Shown: positions 5,093 through 57,092 of the stretch, in pieces
How positions within the stretch are numbered: position 1 is the first letter of the stretch
Layout: every line of letters begins with the position of its first letter
Source: Candidatus Nomurabacteria bacterium
GTDB lineage: Bacteria > Patescibacteriota > Minisyncoccia > Phycocordibacterales > UBA918
DNA length: 64,000 nt
Reading direction: 5' to 3'
Assembly: GCA_020632035.1 (NCBI GenBank)
Contig: JACKGG010000001.1
Coordinates: 45,056-109,055 of the forward strand
Position numbers and translations under genes: made by a program
Notes under the pieces: generated by a model
Told to the model about the DNA's origin: nothing
Databases searched by the model: none
The model's input: the letters and a program-made list of their open reading frames with translations, nothing else

Positions 5093-5120
5093 TGACGTTT
5101 TCTCCTTCTTTTGCTAGAAT
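5093..5120 (+). promoter_or_regulatory. Sigma-70-like promoter (TTGACG, 16-nt spacer, TAGAAT) 9 nt upstream of a small ORF
   Basis: TTGACG at 5093–5098 and TAGAAT at 5115–5120. The ATG is at 5130 with no Shine-Dalgarno sequence, so the transcript is probably leaderless. Confidence 0.4.
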
Positions 5121-5129
5121 CTCGCCACT

Positions 5130-5309
5130 ATGTCACAGGATTTACTAATAAAGATGGTGTCTGCAGGCGACAAAAATGGCGTTGAAAAGGTCATGTCTAC
5201 TACACCAGATACAATAACAAAAACAAAAAAAGACCCTAGCAAGAAGTACGAGACCACTAAATTCAACCCGATCGCCAAAGTACACACGGTGTACAAACAA
5301 AAGAAATAG
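5130..5309 (+). CDS. Hypothetical 59-aa lysine-rich small protein
   Basis: ORF MSQDLLIKMVSAGDKNGVEKVMSTTPDTITKTKKDPSKKYETTKFNPIAKVHTVYKQKK. It is bracketed by the promoter above and the terminator hairpin below. It falls under the 60-aa cutoff of the ORF track. Confidence 0.4.
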   Translation: MSQDLLIKMVSAGDKNGVEKVMSTTPDTITKTKKDPSKKYETTKFNPIAKVHTVYKQKK

Positions 5310-5310
5310 A

Positions 5311-5336
5311 AAAATCGTCTCTAAGGAGACGATTTT
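5311..5336. terminator. Bidirectional rho-independent terminator
   Basis: AAAAATCGTCTC-taag-GAGACGATTTTT: a perfect 8-bp stem flanked by an A-run and a T-run. It serves the aldolase on the minus strand and the small ORF on the plus strand. Confidence 0.65.
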
Positions 5337-5369
5337 TCTATTTCTTTTGTTTTTTACCTATATCGAAAT

Positions 5370-6371
5370 TTATAGCTTACCCAAGCTCGCCAAGCTATTT
5401 GCCTTACAAGCTTCCAGCAACGCTTCTTTGGCTTTGTCTTCATTTTCCTTCTTACCTCCCCAGGCTTTTAAAACCGGTTCTTCGATGGCCCGAGAGAATG
5501 AATAAGTAATCGGCCAAGGTTGCTCACCCATCTTAGCGATAGCGTTCAGGTTTTTGGTAGATCGCTCAGGAGTCTGACCACCAGACAAGAACACAATACC
5601 AGCGCAGTCATGAGGAACACTCATGTGGAAGGTGCGTAAGGTAGCATTTGCTACTGCTTCTGGAGAAGTTTGCTCTGCGTACTTGTCGCCAGCTAATACC
5701 ATTGATGACTTGAGTATAAGTCCTTGCAGGTCGACCTTGTATTCAATCAGTGTACTGAAAAGAATTTGTAAGGTCTTGGTGGTAACTTTTTCTGCCAGCT
5801 CGAGTGAGTGATCTCCAGTGTGTATTACCTCTGGTTCAACTATCGGTACGATACCTGCCTCTTGAGCAATCTGGGCGTAACGGGTCATCATGACACAATT
5901 CATCTTTAGGATTTCGTCAGTTGGTGTGTCGTCTTCATCGATATTTACCACCATCCGCCATTTAGCAAAACGAGCACCGAGGTTGTAGTAGTCGGCAAAG
6001 CGTTCAGTCAGATTATCTAATCCTTGAGTTACCACCTCACCTTTGAACCCATGAATTTCTCTAGTCCCCAGATCAACTTTGATCCCAGGCACAATACCAC
6101 TAGCAGTAAGCACATCTGGAAAAGCAACTCCATCGTCGGTAAAATTACGAATCGAGGAATCATACATAATAACTCCAGACAAATACTCTTCTATTCCAGG
6201 AGCAGTAAATAAAATTTCCCGGAAGTCTTGTCGGTTTTCTGGTTCGTTTGGTAAATTGACCATAGCCAAACGAAGACCTGCAGTTCCATCACTTTCGTCG
6301 GCAGCCAAAATCCCTTTGCCTGGGGCAAGAAGAGCGGCCACTGTTTCATAAAGCTTTGTATTCTTTTTCAT
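5370..6371 (-). CDS. Fructose-bisphosphate aldolase, class I
   Basis: 333 aa. The GKGILAADES motif and overall similarity match class I (Schiff-base) FBA. Confidence 0.85.
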   Translation of the reverse strand: MKKNTKLYETVAALLAPGKGILAADESDGTAGLRLAMVNLPNEPENRQDFREILFTAPGIEEYLSGVIMYDSSIRNFTDDGVAFPDVLTASGIVPGIKVDLGTREIHGFKGEVVTQGLDNLTERFADYYNLGARFAKWRMVVNIDEDDTPTDEILKMNCVMMTRYAQIAQEAGIVPIVEPEVIHTGDHSLELAEKVTTKTLQILFSTLIEYKVDLQGLILKSSMVLAGDKYAEQTSPEAVANATLRTFHMSVPHDCAGIVFLSGGQTPERSTKNLNAIAKMGEQPWPITYSFSRAIEEPVLKAWGGKKENEDKAKEALLEACKANSLASLGKL

Positions 6372-6499
6372 CCCGTTAGAAATTAACTGAATAAAACCTC
6401 TTGCTAGATATTGTTGTGTGATTCATAGGAACTAATGTTACTTGCCGAAGGATCCATGTTAATTTCTAACTGGATTCATACTTACCTATGTAGTGTAGC

Positions 6500-6530
6500 A
6501 AAGGCGTGGGCCCGTGGGGCCCGCGCCTGT
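6500..6530 (-). terminator. GC-rich hairpin downstream of the ABC permease
   Basis: GGCGTGGGCCC-gtg-GGGCCCGCGCC: an 11-bp stem including one G·U pair, in an otherwise AT-rich spacer. Confidence 0.4.
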
Positions 6531-11052: not shown

Positions 11053-12312
11053 ATGACCGACAAAAAACTATCTACCGAATCATACAAAGGAGTGCGTGAC
11101 TTTTACCCAGAGGATGCAGCTATTCAACAATATATTTTTAATACTTGGGCCAAGACAGCCGAAAGTTTTGGTTTTGATCGCTACGATGCTTCTATCTTAG
11201 AGCCTTCGGACTTATACCGCGCCAAGGGGGCTGAGAATGAAGAGATGGTAAACGAGCAGACCTACACCTTCACCGACCGAGGTGAGCGTGAAGTTACCCT
11301 TCGTCCTGAGATGACTCCGACCATAGCACGTATGGTAGCCGGCAAAGCTCGCGAGCTCGCCTTCCCATTGCGTTGGTATTCGATCCCAAATCTGTTTCGG
11401 TACGAACGTCCACAAAAAGGTCGATTACGTGAACACTGGCAATTAAATTGCGATATTTTTGGTTCCGACAGCGTGGCAGCCGATGTAGAGATAATTGCTC
11501 TCGCCCACCAAACTATGATTAATTTTGGCGCGACTAATGAGCTGTTTGAAATTAGAATCAATGACCGCCAGCTAATGCAAAGATTATATAGGGCCATCGG
11601 GCTGAACGACGACCTAATTCCAAAAATAACTCACCTAAACGACCGGAAAAATAAAATCTCGCGCGAAGAATACTTAGACGCATTAAACTCTATAACCAAT
11701 GACGAAACCATAACCGAGGAAGTAATCATGCTCTTGGAAAAATCAGACGAACAGACCGATGTAGTGATCGGCCTAGAGGAACTAGGTATCACAAACGTCG
11801 TCTTCGACAAAAGTCTGGCTCGAGGCTTCGATTATTACACCGGCACCATCTTTGAAATATTTGAATTAGATGGAGAAGGTAGATCAACCGGGCGATCGAT
11901 GCTTGGTGGTGGACGATATGACAACCTTACCAGTATGTTCGGAGGTAAACCTATTTCTGGAATTGGTTTTGGTATGGGTGATGTGACCATGCGAGATTTC
12001 CTTGAAGCTCATAACCTAATCCCAGGCAAGGCTCGATGTACCTCAGCTAAGGTGACTATAATTCCAGAAACCAGTGAACAAAATTTATACGCAGAAGTGG
12101 TGGCTAAACGAGTTAGAGAAACCGGTGTTGCTGTCTCAACTGACCTTGGCACTCAAAAGTTAGATAAGAAAAAAGCCCGTGCTAGTGAACGAGGTGTAAA
12201 GTTCATAATTGTAATTGGAGAAAACGAAGCCATTACTGCCAAAGACATCACTACAGGAGACAAAAAGTCGGGTCAGATTACTGAAATAATTAATTTCTTA
12301 AACACAAAATAA
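11053..12312 (+). CDS. hisS: Histidyl-tRNA synthetase
   Basis: Class II aaRS motifs (RPEMTP, FRYERPQKGRLREHWQ) and HisRS-wide similarity, 419 aa. Confidence 0.9.
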   Translation: MTDKKLSTESYKGVRDFYPEDAAIQQYIFNTWAKTAESFGFDRYDASILEPSDLYRAKGAENEEMVNEQTYTFTDRGEREVTLRPEMTPTIARMVAGKARELAFPLRWYSIPNLFRYERPQKGRLREHWQLNCDIFGSDSVAADVEIIALAHQTMINFGATNELFEIRINDRQLMQRLYRAIGLNDDLIPKITHLNDRKNKISREEYLDALNSITNDETITEEVIMLLEKSDEQTDVVIGLEELGITNVVFDKSLARGFDYYTGTIFEIFELDGEGRSTGRSMLGGGRYDNLTSMFGGKPISGIGFGMGDVTMRDFLEAHNLIPGKARCTSAKVTIIPETSEQNLYAEVVAKRVRETGVAVSTDLGTQKLDKKKARASERGVKFIIVIGENEAITAKDITTGDKKSGQITEIINFLNTK

Positions 12313-24304: not shown

Positions 24305-27300
24305 CTAATTTTGACTAGCTTGTAAATCCTGAATCATCTTGTACTTCTGACTTCCTTCGAACCCAGAACCTGCTGGAATAAGTTTTCCGATGATAACGTT
24401 TTCCATCAAGCCAGCCAGGTTATCGCTACTTCCCTTCACTGCTGCGTTAATAAGAACGCGAGTTGTGTTTTGGAATGAAGCGGCTGACAAGAAACTCTTT
24501 CGTGATAGAGATGTCTCAGTGATACCCATTATTAGTCTGTCACCTTTTGCAACATCTTTTCCATCTTCTTTGAGCTTGTTGTTTATATCAACCAAGATCC
24601 ATTCTTCAACCACTTCACCAATTGTGAACGGGCTGTCTCCTCTATGATTAATCTTAACCCGTGACATCATCTGCTTAACAATAAGCTCAATGTGCTTTCG
24701 TGAAATGGTTACACCTTGAAGTTCGTAAATCTTGTTTACTTCAGAAATAATATAGTCCTGAGTTATTTCTTGTCCTCCAAACTTAAACAGTTCAGGAAGT
24801 AGAGCAGAACCGTCAGTAAGCATTTGTCCAGGAATAACAGTATCTCCCTTTGAAACGGTAGTTACACGACGGTAGTGCACTTCATACTCAGTTGCATCTT
24901 TCTTTTTTGGAGCACCGGGAGCACTCATGTCTGGAGCAACTACGATTACTTTTTCTCGTCCTTCAGTTCGTATATCAGTAACAACACCATGATACTTAGC
25001 AACTACAGCTGGAATTTTTGGTTGACGCTTCTCGAAGACTTCTTCTACACGAGGTAGACCTTGAGTTACGTCTCCACCTACAGATGCGGCTCCTCCGGCG
25101 TGCTTGGTGTTCATAGTAAGCTGAGTACCCGGCTCACCAATCGCTTGGGCTGCTACAGTCCCTACTGCTTCACCAATATCTACTAGAGCATTGGTTGTAA
25201 GGTCGATACCATAGCACTGCTGACATACTCCTCTTAGTGTCTTACAGGTCATTGGAGAACGTACAGTCACATTTTCACAAGTTGTCTCCTCTACAGCAAT
25301 CGCATCACGCCGAGAAAGCAGATGTCCTTTTTTGAAGATAACATTTCCTTTTGTATCAACAGCATCCTCAGCTAAGATACGTCCACGAATTGCTTTAGAA
25401 AATGCAATTTCGATTCCAGAAGCTGAGATACGGTTAATGCTTGTTCCCGCTTTAGTCTTACAGTTTGACTCAGTTACGATAGCGTCTTGAGCTACCACGA
25501 AGAGTCGTCGAGTAAGATAACCTGCTTTTGCAGTTTGAAGTGCGGTGTCAGCTAGCCCCTTACGCGAACCGTGAGTAGTATTAAAGTACTCAATCGGTGT
25601 CATACCTTCTTTCATAGATGAAAGTACTGGGAACTCTAGAGTTTCACCTCTAGTGTTTACAATCAAACCTTTCATACCCGCCATTTGAGCAATCTGTCCG
25701 AGAGAACCTCGAGCACCAGACTTCCACATTTCATAAGCAGAACCATTTTCGCTCAAAGTTTCTGGTAGAATTTTTTCAATATCACTTTTCGCTCGGTGCC
25801 ATACTTCTACCACCATTCGACGTCGTTCGTCTCGTGAAAGAAGACCTTCGTCAAAATGTCCAACAATCTCGCGCACTTCTTCTCTAGCTGCTTCTATAAT
25901 CGCAGGTTTTTGTTCTGGCACAATCACGTCATCAATTCCCCAAGTAGTTCCTGAAACAGTTGCGTACTTGAAACCAAACTTCTTAAGTCGGTCTACAATC
26001 GCTGGTACCGCTTGAGCACCGCGATCGTCAATAATATCAATGATGATTTGGAATAATGTCTTTTGAACAACTACGTCATTGATGAATGGGTGATCGCTAG
26101 GAAGTACAGAGTTGAATAAAAGACGTCCAACCGAGGTCTCAAATATTTTTCCTTCATATTGAGCGTACTTTTCAGTTTCTGTGGAAAGTACTTTAACCAT
26201 TGCACGGAAGTCTATTACTCCGTAATCAAAAGCATTGATAGCGTCATTTGGAGAAGCAAAGTACTTACCCTCTCCATGTGCACCTTCAACCACCTTAGTC
26301 ATCCAGTAGGCTCCAAGGGCCATATCTAGAAGCTTTTCAGATACCACAGGCTCAGAAGAACCCGGCTTTAGAATATTGTTGTTTGCAGAGATAATTGTCT
26401 TAGCTTCCATCTGTGCTTCATCTGAAAGTGGTACGTGTACCGCCATTTGGTCTCCGTCGAAGTCGGCATTAAATGCTCGACAAACAAGTGGGTGTACCTG
26501 GATAGCGTTACCCTCAATCAGTACTGGACGGAAGGCCTGGATACCTTGTCGGTGAAGAGTTGGAGCACGGTTTAGCATCACGTATTTCTTCATGATGATA
26601 TCTTCAAGAATCGCCCAAACTTCAGGTACACCATCCTCAATCAAGCGTCCAGCTCCTCTAATGTTGTATGCCAACTCTTGTTCGAGCAGTTGAGCAATTA
26701 CAAACGGTCGAAAAAGTTCAAGGGCCATGTGCTTCGGAAGACCACATTGGTCTAGCGCTAGCTCAGGACCGATAACAATCACAGAACGTCCAGAATAGTC
26801 TACTCGTTTACCAAGTAGGTTTTGTCGGAAGTATCCTTGCTTACTCTTTAGGTAGTCAGAAAGTGACTTTAGTGGTCGACGTTGTGCCTGACTCATTACT
26901 GAGTATGCTCCACCACCGTGTCGGATAGAATTATCGATCAGAGCATCAACGGCCTCCTGCATGATTCGTTTTTCGTTTCGAAGAATAACGTCTGGCGCCT
27001 GAATGTCGATCAACTTTTTTAGACGATTGTTTCGGTTGATAACTCGTCGATAAAGGTCGTTTAGGTCAGAAGAAGCGTGCCGACCTCCTTCAAGAGCCAC
27101 CATCGGACGGATAGCTGGTGGTACCACTGGGATACGAGTTAGGAACAGCCATTCTGGCTTTACTCCAGCGTTTACCATTCCTCGAATAAGCGATAGACGC
27201 TTGTCGAGTTTTGCTCGCTCCATTGCACCAGCCTTGGTGTAACGATCTTCAAGTTCTTCAGCTAGCTTAGACAGGTCAAGCTCTTTGAATAATTCAAAGA

Positions 27301-27991
27301 TAGCTTCAGCACCGATCTTAGCTTCAAATAAAGTACTGTACTTGATTGAGAACTTGTGAAAAGTCGCCTCGTCTAGTACTACTCCTAGCTTGATACCTTC
27401 AATCTCTTTTTTGGTTTCATCAGCTCTGGTCTTCAGAGCGTCCTTTGCGTCTTCGTTTTGCAGTGCTTTTAGTTTTGTTTTAAATTCTGTATCAAGTTCA
27501 TTTAAGATTCGAGCTCGATCTTGCTCGCTTACCTTAGTTACAATGTATCCAGCGAAGTAGATGACTTTTTCTACTGAAGAAGCAGTCAGACCAAGAATCA
27601 TAGCGATTCTTGATGGTACTCCACGTAGGAACCAAATGTGAGACACGGGAACACAAAGGTCGATGTGACCCATTCGTTCTCGACGTACAATGGCGCGAGT
27701 AATTTCTACTCCACACTTTTCACATACAATACCTTTGTAGCGAATTCCTCGGTACTTCTTACAACTACATTCGTAGTCTTCAACTGGACCAAAGATTCTT
27801 TCATCAAATAGACCGTGCTTCTCAGGACGTTGAGTTCGGTAGTTAATCGTTTCCGGCTTAGTTACTTCTCCCCATGACCAGTCAAGAATAGTTTCTGGTG
27901 ATGCCAACTTCAAACTTACACCTGTGTAGTTTGTTGGGATTGGTGCTGGCTTCTTGAATTCTGTTTTTTTGAATGTTGATTCGTTAGACAT
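24305..27991 (-). CDS. rpoC: DNA-directed RNA polymerase subunit beta'
   Basis: 1228 aa with the NADFDGD catalytic motif and zinc-binding cysteines at the N-terminus. Confidence 0.95.
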   Translation of the reverse strand: MSNESTFKKTEFKKPAPIPTNYTGVSLKLASPETILDWSWGEVTKPETINYRTQRPEKHGLFDERIFGPVEDYECSCKKYRGIRYKGIVCEKCGVEITRAIVRRERMGHIDLCVPVSHIWFLRGVPSRIAMILGLTASSVEKVIYFAGYIVTKVSEQDRARILNELDTEFKTKLKALQNEDAKDALKTRADETKKEIEGIKLGVVLDEATFHKFSIKYSTLFEAKIGAEAIFELFKELDLSKLAEELEDRYTKAGAMERAKLDKRLSLIRGMVNAGVKPEWLFLTRIPVVPPAIRPMVALEGGRHASSDLNDLYRRVINRNNRLKKLIDIQAPDVILRNEKRIMQEAVDALIDNSIRHGGGAYSVMSQAQRRPLKSLSDYLKSKQGYFRQNLLGKRVDYSGRSVIVIGPELALDQCGLPKHMALELFRPFVIAQLLEQELAYNIRGAGRLIEDGVPEVWAILEDIIMKKYVMLNRAPTLHRQGIQAFRPVLIEGNAIQVHPLVCRAFNADFDGDQMAVHVPLSDEAQMEAKTIISANNNILKPGSSEPVVSEKLLDMALGAYWMTKVVEGAHGEGKYFASPNDAINAFDYGVIDFRAMVKVLSTETEKYAQYEGKIFETSVGRLLFNSVLPSDHPFINDVVVQKTLFQIIIDIIDDRGAQAVPAIVDRLKKFGFKYATVSGTTWGIDDVIVPEQKPAIIEAAREEVREIVGHFDEGLLSRDERRRMVVEVWHRAKSDIEKILPETLSENGSAYEMWKSGARGSLGQIAQMAGMKGLIVNTRGETLEFPVLSSMKEGMTPIEYFNTTHGSRKGLADTALQTAKAGYLTRRLFVVAQDAIVTESNCKTKAGTSINRISASGIEIAFSKAIRGRILAEDAVDTKGNVIFKKGHLLSRRDAIAVEETTCENVTVRSPMTCKTLRGVCQQCYGIDLTTNALVDIGEAVGTVAAQAIGEPGTQLTMNTKHAGGAASVGGDVTQGLPRVEEVFEKRQPKIPAVVAKYHGVVTDIRTEGREKVIVVAPDMSAPGAPKKKDATEYEVHYRRVTTVSKGDTVIPGQMLTDGSALLPELFKFGGQEITQDYIISEVNKIYELQGVTISRKHIELIVKQMMSRVKINHRGDSPFTIGEVVEEWILVDINNKLKEDGKDVAKGDRLIMGITETSLSRKSFLSAASFQNTTRVLINAAVKGSSDNLAGLMENVIIGKLIPAGSGFEGSQKYKMIQDLQASQN

Positions 27992-53901: not shown

Positions 53902-54810
53902 TTATATATTAGCAATACTGGCTCGCAACTGATCACTGTAGTCTGCTGATTGGACGTTAACCCTAGTATTGTCTATCAGGTGCCTGAATTTTATAGCCGG
54001 AAATTCTCCGCCTGACTCGATCAATTCCATTTCATATAAAACTTCGTCGAAATATCCTGGCAAGATTGTCTTCCAAGTAAGTGGAAAATCTACTTGAGAC
54101 ATTTGTTCGACTGGTCTGGTTAGTTCATTGGTACAATTATGGGTTAGGGTATTGTACATGGTAGGTGTCTCGTAGACGTCGTTTACCTTTTTTGAAATGA
54201 GTCTCAGTAATTCTTTAGCTTGTTCTGAGGTGGCTTTGGTTGGATACAAATAGACTCTCTCCCCCCTATACCCCGTTCTCACCCCCACAATATCTTTTTC
54301 TGAGCCAACCACGTAAATAGTCTCAAACTGTCTAAGTATTCCTAAGAGAGGTGAAAAGGCTTCCCCTTCTTCTCTTCTTGTTTCTAACGATACTACGACT
54401 GGTTCATCGTCTTCGACTCTAAAGCTCAAAAATATATGAGCCAACCCTTCAAAATCATCGAAGTGCGAGATAAAAACATCTACCCCACTGATGTTATCGA
54501 AGTCAAAGGTTCTTGATTCATAATTCACCTCAGCAGCTTTAACGTCTGTCCAGTTGAAATTTCGATAGTTATTAATGGTAACCATGGAGCTATCGGTAGA
54601 ATAAATAAACTGTGGAAGTTGTTCGTGACCCAACTCCCAATCTCTATCGTGTGATGGCCTAAAAATTATTACTAAACAAAGATACACCACCAGCCACAAT
54701 AAAAGTATGGTGGATAAAAACAATAATATTTTGTGCCTGAAGAAAAAACCCTTTATTTTCATAAATTTATTATACTTTAAAACTGAACTGGCAAATATCT
54801 TTCTCAACAT
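53902..54810 (-). CDS. Membrane-anchored DUF4105-like protein
   Basis: N-terminal transmembrane segment and the C-terminal …YNTLTHNCTNEL motif, characteristic of the DUF4105/Lnb-like family. Confidence 0.5.
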   Translation of the reverse strand: MLRKIFASSVLKYNKFMKIKGFFFRHKILLFLSTILLLWLVVYLCLVIIFRPSHDRDWELGHEQLPQFIYSTDSSMVTINNYRNFNWTDVKAAEVNYESRTFDFDNISGVDVFISHFDDFEGLAHIFLSFRVEDDEPVVVSLETRREEGEAFSPLLGILRQFETIYVVGSEKDIVGVRTGYRGERVYLYPTKATSEQAKELLRLISKKVNDVYETPTMYNTLTHNCTNELTRPVEQMSQVDFPLTWKTILPGYFDEVLYEMELIESGGEFPAIKFRHLIDNTRVNVQSADYSDQLRASIANI

Positions 54811-54861
54811 TTACAAAAATGACTGATTTGACAAAGATTTTATGAAGGTTAAGATAATACC

Positions 54862-55033
54862 TACAGAGATTGTGGCGCCTACCAAACGCCAGAGCTTAGC
54901 TCGATACTTTCCTAATCTGTATAAATGAGAGCCGATTGGCATACTAATCGGAAACTCGGTGGAACCGCGATCAAGATCGTCCGAGTGAGTCTACGAATTA
55001 TTCGTATATTCACTTGGGCGATTTTATTTTATT
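54862..55033 (+). promoter_or_regulatory. Candidate minimal T-box riboswitch leader of thrS (Thr specifier)
   Basis: GGTGGAACCGCG at 54958–54969 matches the T-box consensus GGUGGNACCGCG. Antiterminator: A1 ACUCGG (54954–59), bulge UGGAACC, A2 GCGAUC/GAUCGU, A1' CCGAGU (54981–86). Alternative terminator: 54976–54986 pairs with 55011–55021 (11 bp), followed by UUUUAUUUUAUU. The upstream hairpin GGCG-ccuACCAaa-CGCC (54874–54890) presents a Thr ACC codon followed by A. Confidence 0.5.
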
Positions 55034-55340
55034 AGAAATTCTGTAGACTCTTTCACTTTAGACTTCTTCCAGACACGCGTCCTCGCCTCCTGCGGGCTCG
55101 GCGCTATGCTCGCTCGATTTTCGCACTATCGTGCGACCGAGCAAAATCGAACTGCGCAATGTCTGTAAAAAATCTAAAGTGAATTCGCTACCATAGAGAA
55201 CTGGGAAGTTATCTCTGTCTAGCGAAACATACCGCAGACTGACCTAGTTTTCAGGAAAGACGCTCAGTCTGACCATGAAAACGGGAAGGTGAGGACGTTG
55301 AGTCTGATAGAGATAACTTCCCAGTTCTAAGAACAAAAAT

Positions 55341-57092
55341 ATGAACCAATCACTAGAACATAAACGACACACCCTCGCTCACCTCTTGGCGGCAGCAGTA
55401 GTTGAGAAGTATCCGAATGCCAAACTAACGCTAGGACCAGCCATTGATACTGGTTTCTATTATGACATCGATTTTTCTACTGGCGATACTCCGGGCGATG
55501 CTGACCTGAAAGATCTCCAGAAAGACATGAAGAAGTTATTGAACAAATGGACAGAATTTACGCACGAGGTGGTTTCTGCTGACCGAGCCAGAGAGATTTT
55601 TGCAGGTAATGAGTTTAAGTTAGAACTTGTAAATGAAATCGAAACAAAAGGCGAACAAATCACTCTTTATACCTGTGGTGGATTTACCGACCTCTGCCGA
55701 GGCGGACACTCGGACAACCCAAAAGCAGAAATTTCTACCGATGCATTCAAACTAGACAAAATCGCTGGTGCTTACTGGCGCGGAGACGAAAAAAACCTAA
55801 TGCTTACCCGTATTTACGGTTTGGCTTTTGATACCAAAGAAGAGCTAGAAGCATATGAAACCCAAATGGAAGAAGCTAAAAAGCGTGACCACAGGAAAAT
55901 TGGAAAAGAATTAGACCTCTTCACTTTTTCAGAATTAGTTGGACCAGGCCTTCCCCTCTTCACCCCAAACGGCACAATGATGCGTGATTTGATTGTAGAT
56001 AAAATCATGCAGATCCAAGCTAAGTATGGATACAAAAAAGTTACGATCCCCCATATTACAAAAAGTGACCTGTACAAGACTTCTGGCCACTGGGAAAAAT
56101 TTGGCGATGAATTGTTCAAGGTAAAAGGTCAATCTGAAGCTGAGTTTGTCATAAAGCCGATGAATTGCCCACATCACACCCAAATTTTTGATGCTCAACC
56201 ACGTTCATATAAGGAGCTTCCAATTCGTTATGCAGAGACAACTATGGTTTACCGTGACGAGCAAGCGGGCGAACTTATTGGACTTGGACGAGTACGTAGT
56301 ATCACTCAGGATGATGGTCACGTTTTTTGTACAGTAGACCAAATTGACCAAGAGGTAGAAAATATTGTCCTCGTGATAAAAGAATTCTATCAATCCCTTG
56401 GTATGTACGAAGAAGGAAAATTCTGGGTATCATTATCTGTGAGTGATCCAAAAGACCCAGGCAAGTATCTTGGTGATAAAGAAAACTGGAAGAAAGCAGA
56501 GAACATGCTTGAAAATGTCGCCAAGAAGCTAGAACTACCTTACAAGCGAGTCGAGGGAGAGGCTGCATTCTATGGGCCGAAGTTAGACTTTATGTTCTTC
56601 GACGCCATTGGTCGGGAGCGTCAGCTTGCGACCGCCCAGTTGGACTTTGTTATGCCAGAACGTTTTGACCTTAGTTACGTGGATAACGAAGGAAATAAGC
56701 AAACTCCTGTTATGATCCACCGAGCAATTGCAGGTTCATTAGAACGTTTCATGGCCATTATGATTGAGCACTTTGCTGGCAACTTCCCGCTCTGGCTTTC
56801 ACCTACTCAATTAACCATCATCCCAGTGGCTGAGGTTCACAATGAATACGCCCTTAATGTTCACAAAGCTTTACTTGAAGCAGGCTTTAGAGCGGAAATT
56901 GATACAGAAAATGAATCCATGGGCAAAAAAATCAGAGGTGCGAAAAAGAACAAACTTCCTTACTTTGTAGTTATCGGAGACAAAGACATAGAGTCTAGCT
57001 CAGTGACTTTAGAATCTAGAGACACTGGAGAATCAGTATCTATTTCTCTTGATGACTTAATTGCGAAACTGTCCAAAGAAGCGAGTGTGTAA
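55341..57092 (+). CDS. thrS: Threonyl-tRNA synthetase (no N-terminal TGS domain)
   Basis: Starts in the editing-domain region (HKRHTLAHLLAAAV zinc-site His residues). Class II catalytic core with conserved HR/FRDE-type motif regions and an anticodon-binding domain. 583 aa, against about 640 aa for canonical ThrRS. Confidence 0.9.
   Translation: MNQSLEHKRHTLAHLLAAAVVEKYPNAKLTLGPAIDTGFYYDIDFSTGDTPGDADLKDLQKDMKKLLNKWTEFTHEVVSADRAREIFAGNEFKLELVNEIETKGEQITLYTCGGFTDLCRGGHSDNPKAEISTDAFKLDKIAGAYWRGDEKNLMLTRIYGLAFDTKEELEAYETQMEEAKKRDHRKIGKELDLFTFSELVGPGLPLFTPNGTMMRDLIVDKIMQIQAKYGYKKVTIPHITKSDLYKTSGHWEKFGDELFKVKGQSEAEFVIKPMNCPHHTQIFDAQPRSYKELPIRYAETTMVYRDEQAGELIGLGRVRSITQDDGHVFCTVDQIDQEVENIVLVIKEFYQSLGMYEEGKFWVSLSVSDPKDPGKYLGDKENWKKAENMLENVAKKLELPYKRVEGEAAFYGPKLDFMFFDAIGRERQLATAQLDFVMPERFDLSYVDNEGNKQTPVMIHRAIAGSLERFMAIMIEHFAGNFPLWLSPTQLTIIPVAEVHNEYALNVHKALLEAGFRAEIDTENESMGKKIRGAKKNKLPYFVVIGDKDIESSSVTLESRDTGESVSISLDDLIAKLSKEASV

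Follow-up and report, generated by a model that had tools for sequence, protein, structure and literature searches.

Does the long spacer in front of the threonyl-tRNA synthetase gene (thrS) of a Candidatus Nomurabacteria bacterium hold a T-box riboswitch and, if so, of which kind? We addressed this question in a 64,000-nucleotide stretch of contig JACKGG010000001.1 (assembly GCA_020632035.1, positions 45,056 to 109,055), hereafter the window, whose first letter is position 1 in the coordinates below. A reading made from the letters alone, hereafter the original prediction, had placed a minimal T-box-like element with a Thr specifier in this spacer. The open reading frame (ORF) at 55341-57092 (+ strand, 583 amino acids (aa)) was identified as threonyl-tRNA synthetase (ThrRS) because it carries the Pfam domains tRNA_SAD, tRNA-synt_2b (class-II core) and HGTP_anticodon (anticodon-binding). 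Its closest ThrRS relatives were 74-87% identical, and all of them came from metagenome-assembled genomes labelled Parcubacteria, Paceibacterota or Patescibacteria. The spacer before thrS spans 54811-55340 (530 bp) and is a divergent intergenic region, since the upstream neighbour (53902-54810) lies on the minus strand. Judged from its sequence and that of its relatives, the thrS leader is a genuine, unusually small T-box riboswitch, in which the decoding domain is non-canonical and the discriminator domain canonical. More specifically, we consider it highly probable that 54864-55036 is a transcription-attenuating T-box riboswitch for tRNA-Thr that controls thrS, with uncharged tRNA-Thr(GGU) as its effector. 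The leader (+ strand) measures ~173 nt from the predicted transcription start to the U-tract. The features of its 3' part, together with the gene, are as follows.

54920-54953, + strand: linker plus first half of the discriminator domain (RRRxG, Stem III, AA)
54927-54931, + strand: purine motif GAGAG (RRRxG)
54932-54951, + strand: Stem III, CCGAUUGG-CAUA-CUAAUCGG
54952-54953, + strand: AA after Stem III
54954-54986, + strand: antiterminator, from the fold of the truncated leader and the Rfam alignment
54954-54959 with 54981-54986, + strand: helix A1, ACUCGG/CCGAGU
54958-54969, + strand: T-box core, GGTGGAACCGCG
54960-54966, + strand: 7-nt T-box bulge UGGAACC, whose UGGA would pair with the tRNA 3' UCCA
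54967-54971 with 54976-54980, + strand: helix A2, GCGAU/AUCGU, with a CAAG loop and a basal G·U
54973-55036, + strand: intrinsic terminator region, with hairpin 54973-55025 (18-bp outer stem, 6-bp inner stem)
55022-55033, + strand: U-tract UUUUAUUUUAUU after the terminator hairpin
55341-57092, + strand: thrS, threonyl-tRNA synthetase, the putatively regulated gene (Pfam domains)

The core, helix A1, the bulge and the specifier hairpin described below were all found in the sequence where the original prediction had put them. Helix A2 was present as well, but it folded with 5 bp and a 4-nt loop and not, as drawn before, with 6 bp and a 2-nt loop. When the leader was truncated at 54990, the antiterminator folded together with the specifier hairpin and Stem III, and the full leader (minimum free energy (MFE) -65.8 kcal/mol, z = -6.7) was dominated by the 18+6-bp terminator. 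Antiterminator and terminator are alternative folds that share 54973-54986, with the terminator hairpin capturing the 3' strands of helices A2 and A1, so the mutual exclusion claimed for them was borne out. The pairing of 54977-54987 with 55011-55021 before a U-run, from which that claim had started, turned out to be the core of the longer hairpin 54973-55025. Estimated energies were -31.8 kcal/mol for the terminator hairpin and -9.8 kcal/mol for the antiterminator; the corresponding averages in TBDB are -19.5 and -7.4 kcal/mol.

The 12-mer core alone is not significant, given one match in the window against 0.27 expected and at least one match in 24 of 100 shuffles. That the leader exceeds chance follows from the E-value of the Rfam T-box model RF00230, from conservation in orthologous thrS leaders and from helix covariation. 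RF00230 matched the leader at 36.6 bits (E = 1.8e-6 on a 701-nt stretch), as the original prediction had anticipated, and aligned end to end with posterior probabilities near 1 over the discriminator half. This score is far below the gathering score of 93, so standard Rfam annotation misses the leader; its relatives scored 26-35 bits against the same model. The gathering threshold is an annotation cut-off tuned to long-Stem-I leaders and not a biological feature.

For comparison we used thrS loci from species-representative genomes (80) and metagenomes (80), referred to by L numbers below. The exact core GGTGGAACCGCG lay 5' of thrS in 38/80 genome loci, and its variable position was always A (UGGA). 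The leaders share one layout, which runs from a -10-like TAnGAT through CAGAGAUUG, the CUACCAA hairpin, a variable part of one or two hairpins and CCUAAUCUG to a purine-rich linker, Stem III with loop GCAUAC, GAAACUC-GGUGGAACCGCG and the terminator. A covariance model, R1, was built here from a MAFFT alignment of 22 leaders. In the window it gave a single match (54864-54988, 127 bits), and it matched 39/80 genome and 44/80 metagenome loci, always just 5' of thrS, with E below about 5e-5 and 2e-4, respectively, and scores of 75-127 bits. The GGUGGAACCGCG/antiterminator geometry, on whose conservation the earlier claim had been staked, is therefore kept before thrS in 38/80 genome loci by exact motif and in 83/160 loci by covariance model.

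Covariation was scored in alignment A2 (plain MAFFT, 22 leaders), for which the structure was written from the window sequence, and in alignment A4, which represents the independent metagenome set. In A2, 96.6% of cells were paired, against 26-38% for slid-partner controls, and 16 of 31 pairs showed double changes; the values for A4 were 95.8% and 24 of 31. Stem III contributed double changes at 6/8 pairs in A2 and 8/8 in A4, and helix A1 covaried (GCGCGG/CCGCGC, GCUAGG/CCUAGC, GUUGGG/CCCAAU). The basal pair of helix A2 was G·U in 18/22 and 33/38 sequences, the discriminator columns A65, G66, G68, A89 and A90 were invariant, and UGGAACC was unchanged in 65 of the 69 distinct leaders that carry the T-box core. 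Furthermore, a terminator-like hairpin that takes at least 4 of the 6 helix A1 3' bases and is followed by a U-rich run was present in 63/65 distinct leaders. RRRxG-Stem III-AA and the RAG motif are reported T-box hallmarks (PMC7583486, PMC11297988).

Two relatives deviate from this layout. In L017 (2826-3005) the full window-type T-box is present without a terminator, and GUUCAUUC, directly adjoining the ATG, offers a pairing partner for the 3' strand of helix A1, GAAUGAAC, which points to a translational (sequestrator) version of the window-type leader. The close relative L002 (2824-2955), with a ThrRS 84% identical, retains promoter, P1, ACC hairpin and CUAA, but has an unrelated hairpin (GUUCCGAAUUUUCGG...CCGAAAAUUCCUGGAAC) where the T-box core and antiterminator would stand.

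The 5' part of the leader is where it departs from known T-boxes. Its features, including the promoter-like site before it, are as follows.

54828-54855, + strand: promoter-like site, -35 TTGACA (54828-54833), 16-nt spacer, -10 TAAGAT (54850-54855)
54864-54867, + strand: 5' strand of helix P1, CAGA, pairing with 54916-54919 and followed by junction bases GA (54868-54869) and UUG (54870-54872)
54873-54891, + strand: specifier hairpin P2, stem UGGCG(C)/(A)CGCCA, 7-nt loop CUACCAA (54879-54885)
54881-54883, + strand: proposed specifier ACC (Thr), with purine A next at 54884
54892-54911, + strand: variable region, made up here of the small hairpin GAGC-UUA-GCUC (54892-54902) and a further 9 nt
54912-54915, + strand: CUAA, followed by the 3' strand of P1, UCUG (54916-54919), which closes the junction

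The original prediction had seen Stem I reduced to a short hairpin displaying ACC-A. The hairpin (54873-54891) stood, but it is not free-standing: the alignments indicate that it shares a junction with a variable arm and with P1, the covarying helix that closes the 5' domain. P1 is a 4-bp helix with compensatory changes in relatives, of which the divergent ones show GUCU/AGAU, AUCC/GGAU, GUCU/AGAC, UGGU/GCUA, CAGG/CCUG and CAAA/UUUG. An alternative closing helix in the MFE register, AGAUUG/UAAUCU, was dropped for CAGA/UCUG plus UU/AA because only the CAGA/UCUG-type register is compensated in L016, L017, L006, L029, L034, L058, L065 and L072. Between P1 and the specifier hairpin, GAUUG faces CUAA. 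In alignment A1 the junction columns A6, U7 and U8 were invariant and G5 and G9 nearly so, and in A2 all of G5-G9 were invariant; on the other side A51 and A52 were invariant, with C49 and U50 at least 90% conserved.

In the specifier hairpin, all six stem pairs showed double (compensatory) changes in both A2 and A4; the loop-closing position in the window is a C·A mismatch. The loop read NNACCR(N) in 62/62 distinct leaders having the hairpin, most often CUACCAA (41), CCACCAA (7) or UUACCAA (5), and otherwise rarer forms such as CAACCAA, GCACCAU and UUACCGC. Such an invariant ACC plus purine over a covarying stem is a signature of selection on the displayed codon. Variation at loop positions 1-2 excludes the frames CUA and UAC. 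A CCA/CCG (CCR, Pro) frame would be compatible with conservation alone, and it is disfavoured because its 3' neighbour would then be no conserved purine, both tRNA-Pro genes found have A73, and the gene is thrS. The ACC specifier ends in C, consistent with the T-box 'C rule'. The loop has the look of an anticodon loop, in that it comprises 7 nt with U in position 2, the triplet in positions 3-5 and a purine in position 6; a loop-loop contact with the GGU anticodon would therefore be expected.

Beyond this hairpin the domain is loosely constrained. The variable region (54892-54911) had no conserved columns in alignments A1 and A2 and forms one or two hairpins in relatives; the stretch beyond the specifier hairpin ranges roughly from 15 to 90 nt, and the distance from leader position 1 to the T-box core from 88 to 159 nt. 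Sequence conservation is likewise missing from the stretch between specifier hairpin and CUAA and, RRRxG aside, from the 12-nt linker. An elbow-binding platform is absent from the leader, with no conserved platform sequence in A1 or A2; neither a Stem II S-turn (GAA/AGUA) nor a Stem IIA/B pseudoknot with F-box was found in the alignments, and the RF00230 alignment deletes the Stem II and IIA/B elements. We also looked for a kink-turn (K-turn), since the invariant GA (54868-54869) faces the invariant AA (54914-54915) beside P1. No mapping of GAUUG/CUAA gave a 3-nt bulge plus tandem G·A/A·G, and the GA/AA bases could conceivably form a K-junction-like variant. Inspection of A2 by eye gave no conserved complementarity, and hence no sign of a pseudoknot, among specifier loop, linker and Stem III loop. 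In the MFE fold of the full (terminated) leader, GAUUGUGG (54868-54875) pairs with CCGCGAUC (54965-54972) over 8 bp, which could be an OFF-state clamp or a folding artefact.

The promoter sets the 5' boundary of this small domain. The site in the window matched 10/12 consensus positions in a consensus scan, and it places the predicted transcription start at ~54862-54864, right at P1. A TAnGAT/TAnnAT hexamer ended 4-14 nt (mostly 8) 5' of leader position 1 in 63/64 distinct leaders, and 59 of those had a -35-like hexamer 16-18 nt further upstream. The transcript therefore begins at P1, leaving no room for a longer Stem I. On the + strand between the terminator and the thrS ATG the consensus scan gave no promoter-like site, so thrS transcription should still cross the T-box terminator.

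We next asked which tRNA the bulge would fit. ARAGORN found only 15 tRNA genes in 162 related loci (1.42 Mb). Three of these encode tRNA-Thr, with anticodons UGU in L069, CGU in L124 and UGU in L132 (the last gene also encodes CCA), and all three have U73. None of the other 12 tRNAs (Pro x2, Tyr x3, Val x2, Ile x2, Glu, Asn, Ser) carries U73, and both tRNA-Pro genes carry A73. The bulge sequence UGGA thus appears to fit tRNA-Thr and, within this small sample of 15 tRNAs, tRNA-Thr alone, and U73 appears unique to tRNA-Thr in the lineage. The statement that U73 is usual for tRNA-Thr holds in this lineage (3/3) but not as a general rule. Likewise, the tRNA-Thr check that had been proposed gave a compatible discriminator in all three genes but no GGU isoacceptor. 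ACC and ACU make up 619/866 (71%) of the Thr codons in the large ORFs of the window, and an ACY-reading tRNA-Thr is therefore expected. Note that 15 tRNA genes in 1.42 Mb of thrS-centred sequence are far below an even spread of a full set, taken as some 40-50 genes in a genome of <1 Mb; tRNA genes may be clustered elsewhere in these genomes.

Taken together, the leader would work as follows. Transcription would start at the conserved promoter, directly at P1, and the 5' domain would fold into the junction that presents ACC plus purine in its anticodon-loop-like 7-nt loop, where the GGU anticodon of tRNA-Thr would pair with ACC. By the known T-box mechanism, the U73-C-C-A end of an uncharged tRNA would then pair with UGGA in the bulge. 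This would stabilise the weak antiterminator (~-10 kcal/mol), aided by the RRRxG-Stem III-AA purines, and block the stronger terminator (~-32 kcal/mol), so that RNA polymerase would read into thrS. With charged tRNA-Thr, or with no tRNA, the terminator would form and transcription would stop at the U-tract. What the sequences themselves show are the elements and their alternative folds, with conservation and covariation, the promoter position, and a codon and discriminator base that suit the gene and the tRNAs of the lineage; we infer tRNA binding, sensing of the charging state and read-through by analogy with known T-boxes.

How does this leader compare with described systems? It shares with glyQS of Bacillus subtilis and Geobacillus kaustophilus the transcription attenuation by an antiterminator/terminator switch, the lack of Stem II and of a IIA/B pseudoknot, a short single-stranded linker from decoding to discriminator domain, the RRRxG-Stem III-AA set, the UGGNACC bulge, the basal G·U in helix A2, and a G+C-rich codon ending in C. 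In contrast, the Stem I of glyQS is long; it includes a K-turn, an internal specifier loop bearing an S-turn and, distally, a double T-loop platform stacking on the tRNA elbow. The window leader has no conserved platform sequence, and its codon is displayed by the 7-nt terminal loop of one junction arm, the second arm being variable. A review attributes the missing Stem II of Gly leaders to strong GGC/GCC pairing, states that transcriptional T-boxes generally need an elbow-binding long Stem I platform, and asks whether any T-box functions without a K-turn (PMC7583486).

The original prediction had likened the element to the ultrashort Stem I T-boxes of Actinobacteria. This likeness holds for the reduced Stem I without an elbow platform (ileS of Mycobacterium tuberculosis and Nocardia farcinica), for the specifier in the terminal loop of a short hairpin, as in the ultrashort form, and for the canonical discriminator domain. 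It does not extend further, because the actinobacterial ileS leaders are translational, acting via a sequestrator, and keep a K-turn, Stem II with an S-turn purine string and a IIA/B pseudoknot with an F-box, all of them required for tRNA binding. In the window leader, which is transcriptional, neither Stem II nor the pseudoknot was found and no K-turn is recognisable; its P1 encloses the specifier hairpin plus a variable hairpin. The Bacillus subtilis thrS/thrZ T-box is the classical Thr-specific element and shares with the window leader the regulated gene, the amino-acid class and the mechanism. The core matches its AGGGUGGNACCGCG at 12/14 positions, whereas the classical element has a full-length Stem I/Stem II/IIA-B and ~250-300 nt, against ~173 nt here. 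The window leader therefore looks like a T-box by mechanism, with a decoding domain whose architecture is new and differs from all described T-box classes. It is about an even call whether it represents a third architectural class, seen so far only in Paceibacteria of the candidate phyla radiation (CPR), which works co-transcriptionally with a small junction and a loop-loop 'kissing' contact with tRNA-Thr. If this were so, anticodon and NCCA pairing would be enough for kinetic control of transcription, or else the GAUUG/CUAA junction and the Stem III loop GCAUAC would make a new contact or recruit a protein.

Several observations weigh against a tRNA-Thr-sensing T-box in the window. The 64 kb contain no tRNA gene, a tRNA-Thr(GGU) was found by ARAGORN neither there nor in the 1.42 Mb of related loci, and the three U73 tRNA-Thr genes are UGU/CGU isoacceptors from loci without this leader. 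RF00230 gives no match in the window at its gathering score, and the Stem I alignment that it proposed (54774-54870) was rejected as spurious because it lies upstream of the conserved promoter. Pair counts from alignments A3 and A4 are inflated, as both were fitted to the model, though the plain-MAFFT A2 gives the same picture. No explanation was found for ~300 nt of structured inserts between the terminator and the ATG. Finally, the platform reported as needed by transcriptional T-boxes (PMC7583486) is absent, so tRNA binding may be weak or need a helper. Some of these points would also suit a relic or repurposed T-box, that is, a real switch whose 5' domain no longer decodes, so that it would be constitutive or answer to any uncharged tRNA or to a protein factor. 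Such a leader would account for the score below the Rfam threshold and for the lack of platform, Stem II and recognisable K-turn where transcriptional T-boxes are reported to need the elbow contact (PMC7583486). In addition, Campbellbacteria relatives seem to run the discriminator domain alone, so decoding may be dispensable in the group, and L002 keeps the 5' domain yet has lost the T-box core. We nevertheless consider a relic unlikely: ACC plus purine stands in 62/62 loops above a stem that covaries at every pair, P1 and the junction bases are under strong constraint too, and codon and UGGN base have switched jointly in the aspS leader that L044 carries (see below).

The 7-nt loop could also be viewed as a mimic of the tRNA-Thr anticodon arm that ThrRS binds to regulate its own gene. 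The geometry of CUACCAA (7 nt, U at 2, purine at 6) would suit such an operator, and E. coli thrS is autoregulated by ThrRS binding its leader. However, the loop shows the codon ACC and no Thr anticodon (GGU, UGU or CGU); being a codon, it is complementary to tRNA-Thr and not a mimic of it. The hairpin also lies ~460 nt upstream of the ATG, before the terminator and away from the ribosome-binding site, and an operator would leave the full set of T-box discriminator hallmarks unexplained, which makes this explanation very improbable. Chance resemblance, or a plain terminator of an upstream transcript without regulatory role, has the least credit of all. Although the 12-nt core by itself does not reach significance in 64 kb, the gene upstream (53902-54810) runs on the minus strand, opposite to the leader, which itself has a promoter immediately in front of it, and conservation with covariation across 83 loci, always before thrS, refutes this idea. 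A T-box that reads tRNA-Thr therefore stays the preferred reading.

Related loci showed further T-box forms. L044 (4848-5100) holds a second T-box, downstream of thrS and before a gene at 5116-6516 that encodes a class-II D/K/N synthetase whose sequence looks like AspRS. This aspS leader scored 35.2 bits against the Rfam T-box model. It has an ultrashort Stem I, CCAG-CUGACA-CUGG, showing GAC-A in the 'CU-NNN-A' loop context that the window leader also has. There is in addition a K-turn-like base, GAA/AGUA in Stem II and a IIA/B-like hairpin; the bulge reads UGGC, and a terminator is present. Bacterial tRNA-Asp carries G73, which fits UGGC. Codon and discriminator-pairing base thus switch together with the predicted gene, which is the classic T-box signature. 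The thrS leaders of Moraniibacteriota take yet another form:

L055, 2731-2859: Moraniibacteriota thrS leader
L051, 1255-1400: Moraniibacteriota thrS leader
L041, ~2700-2870: Moraniibacteriota thrS leader

In these three leaders a textbook K-turn (CAGAC-GGU-GA...GA-GUCUG) is combined with a 4-bp stem and a terminal loop of 8 nt that contains ACU-A; Stem II is missing, and the core reads GAGUGGAACCGCC. Both the L044 aspS type and the thrS type of L055 and L051 have terminators, which suggests that 'ultrashort Stem I' T-boxes exist in CPR too and are coupled there to terminators. Lastly, Campbellbacteria-like thrS leaders keep the discriminator domain alone, as AAGUG-Stem III-AA-antiterminator (UGGA)-terminator:

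L025, 2812-2922: Campbellbacteria-like leader, in the complete genome of Campbellbacteria GW2011_OD1_34_28
L128, 7732-7841: Campbellbacteria-like leader
L129, 9812-9922: Campbellbacteria-like leader
L141, 5036-5120: Campbellbacteria-like leader

Conservation among them (3 distinct loci) begins at a TTGACA...TACTAT promoter at the Stem I position. The transcript therefore seems to lack any specifier, and the leader is possibly a natural 'discriminator-only' T-box relying on U73.

Between the terminator and the ATG the window contains two ~130-nt hairpin-closed units, at 55052-55183 (fold z = -3.6) and 55197-55328 (z = -8.8). They share a core of ~35-41 nt, (G)UAGC-GAAACAU(CU/UC)GCAG-[variable hairpin]-CGA(AGC/GGA)CGUUGAG-UCUaAUA (also written (G)UAGC-GAAACAUyyGCAG...CGArGmCGUUGAG), of which 22 distinct copies occur in 1.4 Mb, only between a T-box terminator and the thrS ATG. 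Both orientations of the units occur; frequently they form inverted pairs spaced by 60-100 nt, and unit-specific complementary arms close them. Those in relatives are located as follows.

L004, 2815-2961: insert unit
L016, 2772-2959: insert unit
L083, 4756-4917: insert unit
L094, 9795-9959: insert unit
L103, 1746-1871: insert unit
L108, 1239-1401: insert unit
L008, 2881-2959: insert unit
L009, 2637-2715: insert unit
L031, 2919-2959: insert unit
L097, 6177-6217: insert unit

The units had no Rfam match, and a hammerhead reading was rejected, the core being CUGCAG...CGAAG instead of CUGAUGA...GAAA, with no Rfam hit. They could be elements like repetitive extragenic palindromes (REP/REPIN-like), several of them beginning with GTAG; an operator, a target of RNase III or an invertible segment would be other options. 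A third, different conserved structured insert, CAAGGCAUGGAGAA...GAGUCGUAUCnGGCAUACGGUGA...GAGGCUCCAUAACGCAG, was found in the same spacer of other relatives, flanked by inverted repeats and likewise without Rfam match:

L019, ~2880-2968: third insert type
L043, ~1225-1310: third insert type
L066, ~2880-2968: third insert type
L086, ~1720-1805: third insert type

Elsewhere in the window, the motif search and model R1 revealed no other T-box. A core-motif match at 27117 was discarded, as it falls inside the 1228-aa ORF 24305-27991, which is presumably rpoC. The histidyl-tRNA synthetase gene hisS (11053-12312, + strand) has no T-box by motif search or R1, so T-box control is not general for aminoacyl-tRNA synthetase genes in this genome.

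The TBDB supplement treats T-boxes as characteristic of Firmicutes, Actinobacteria, Chloroflexi and Deinococcus-Thermus. Our literature search found no paper linking T-boxes with Patescibacteria, Parcubacteria, Saccharibacteria or CPR, and the text and supplements of TBDB do not mention Patescibacteria/CPR groups, although databases may still list such elements. A conserved thrS T-box in Paceibacteria would thus extend the T-box mechanism to CPR. It would also expose an annotation gap, in that Rfam at its gathering threshold misses all these leaders and R1 recovers them. The leaders provide dozens of natural variants of a ~125-nt sensing core, from leader start to antiterminator end, with which the platform and K-turn requirements (PMC7583486) can be tested, and so small a tRNA-sensing module is attractive for structural work and engineering. 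If U73 is unique to tRNA-Thr in the lineage, this may explain both the shrinkage of the decoding domain and its apparent complete loss in Campbellbacteria relatives. As CPR genomes are small, a direct read-out of tRNA charging may be among the few nutritional sensors that these bacteria have.

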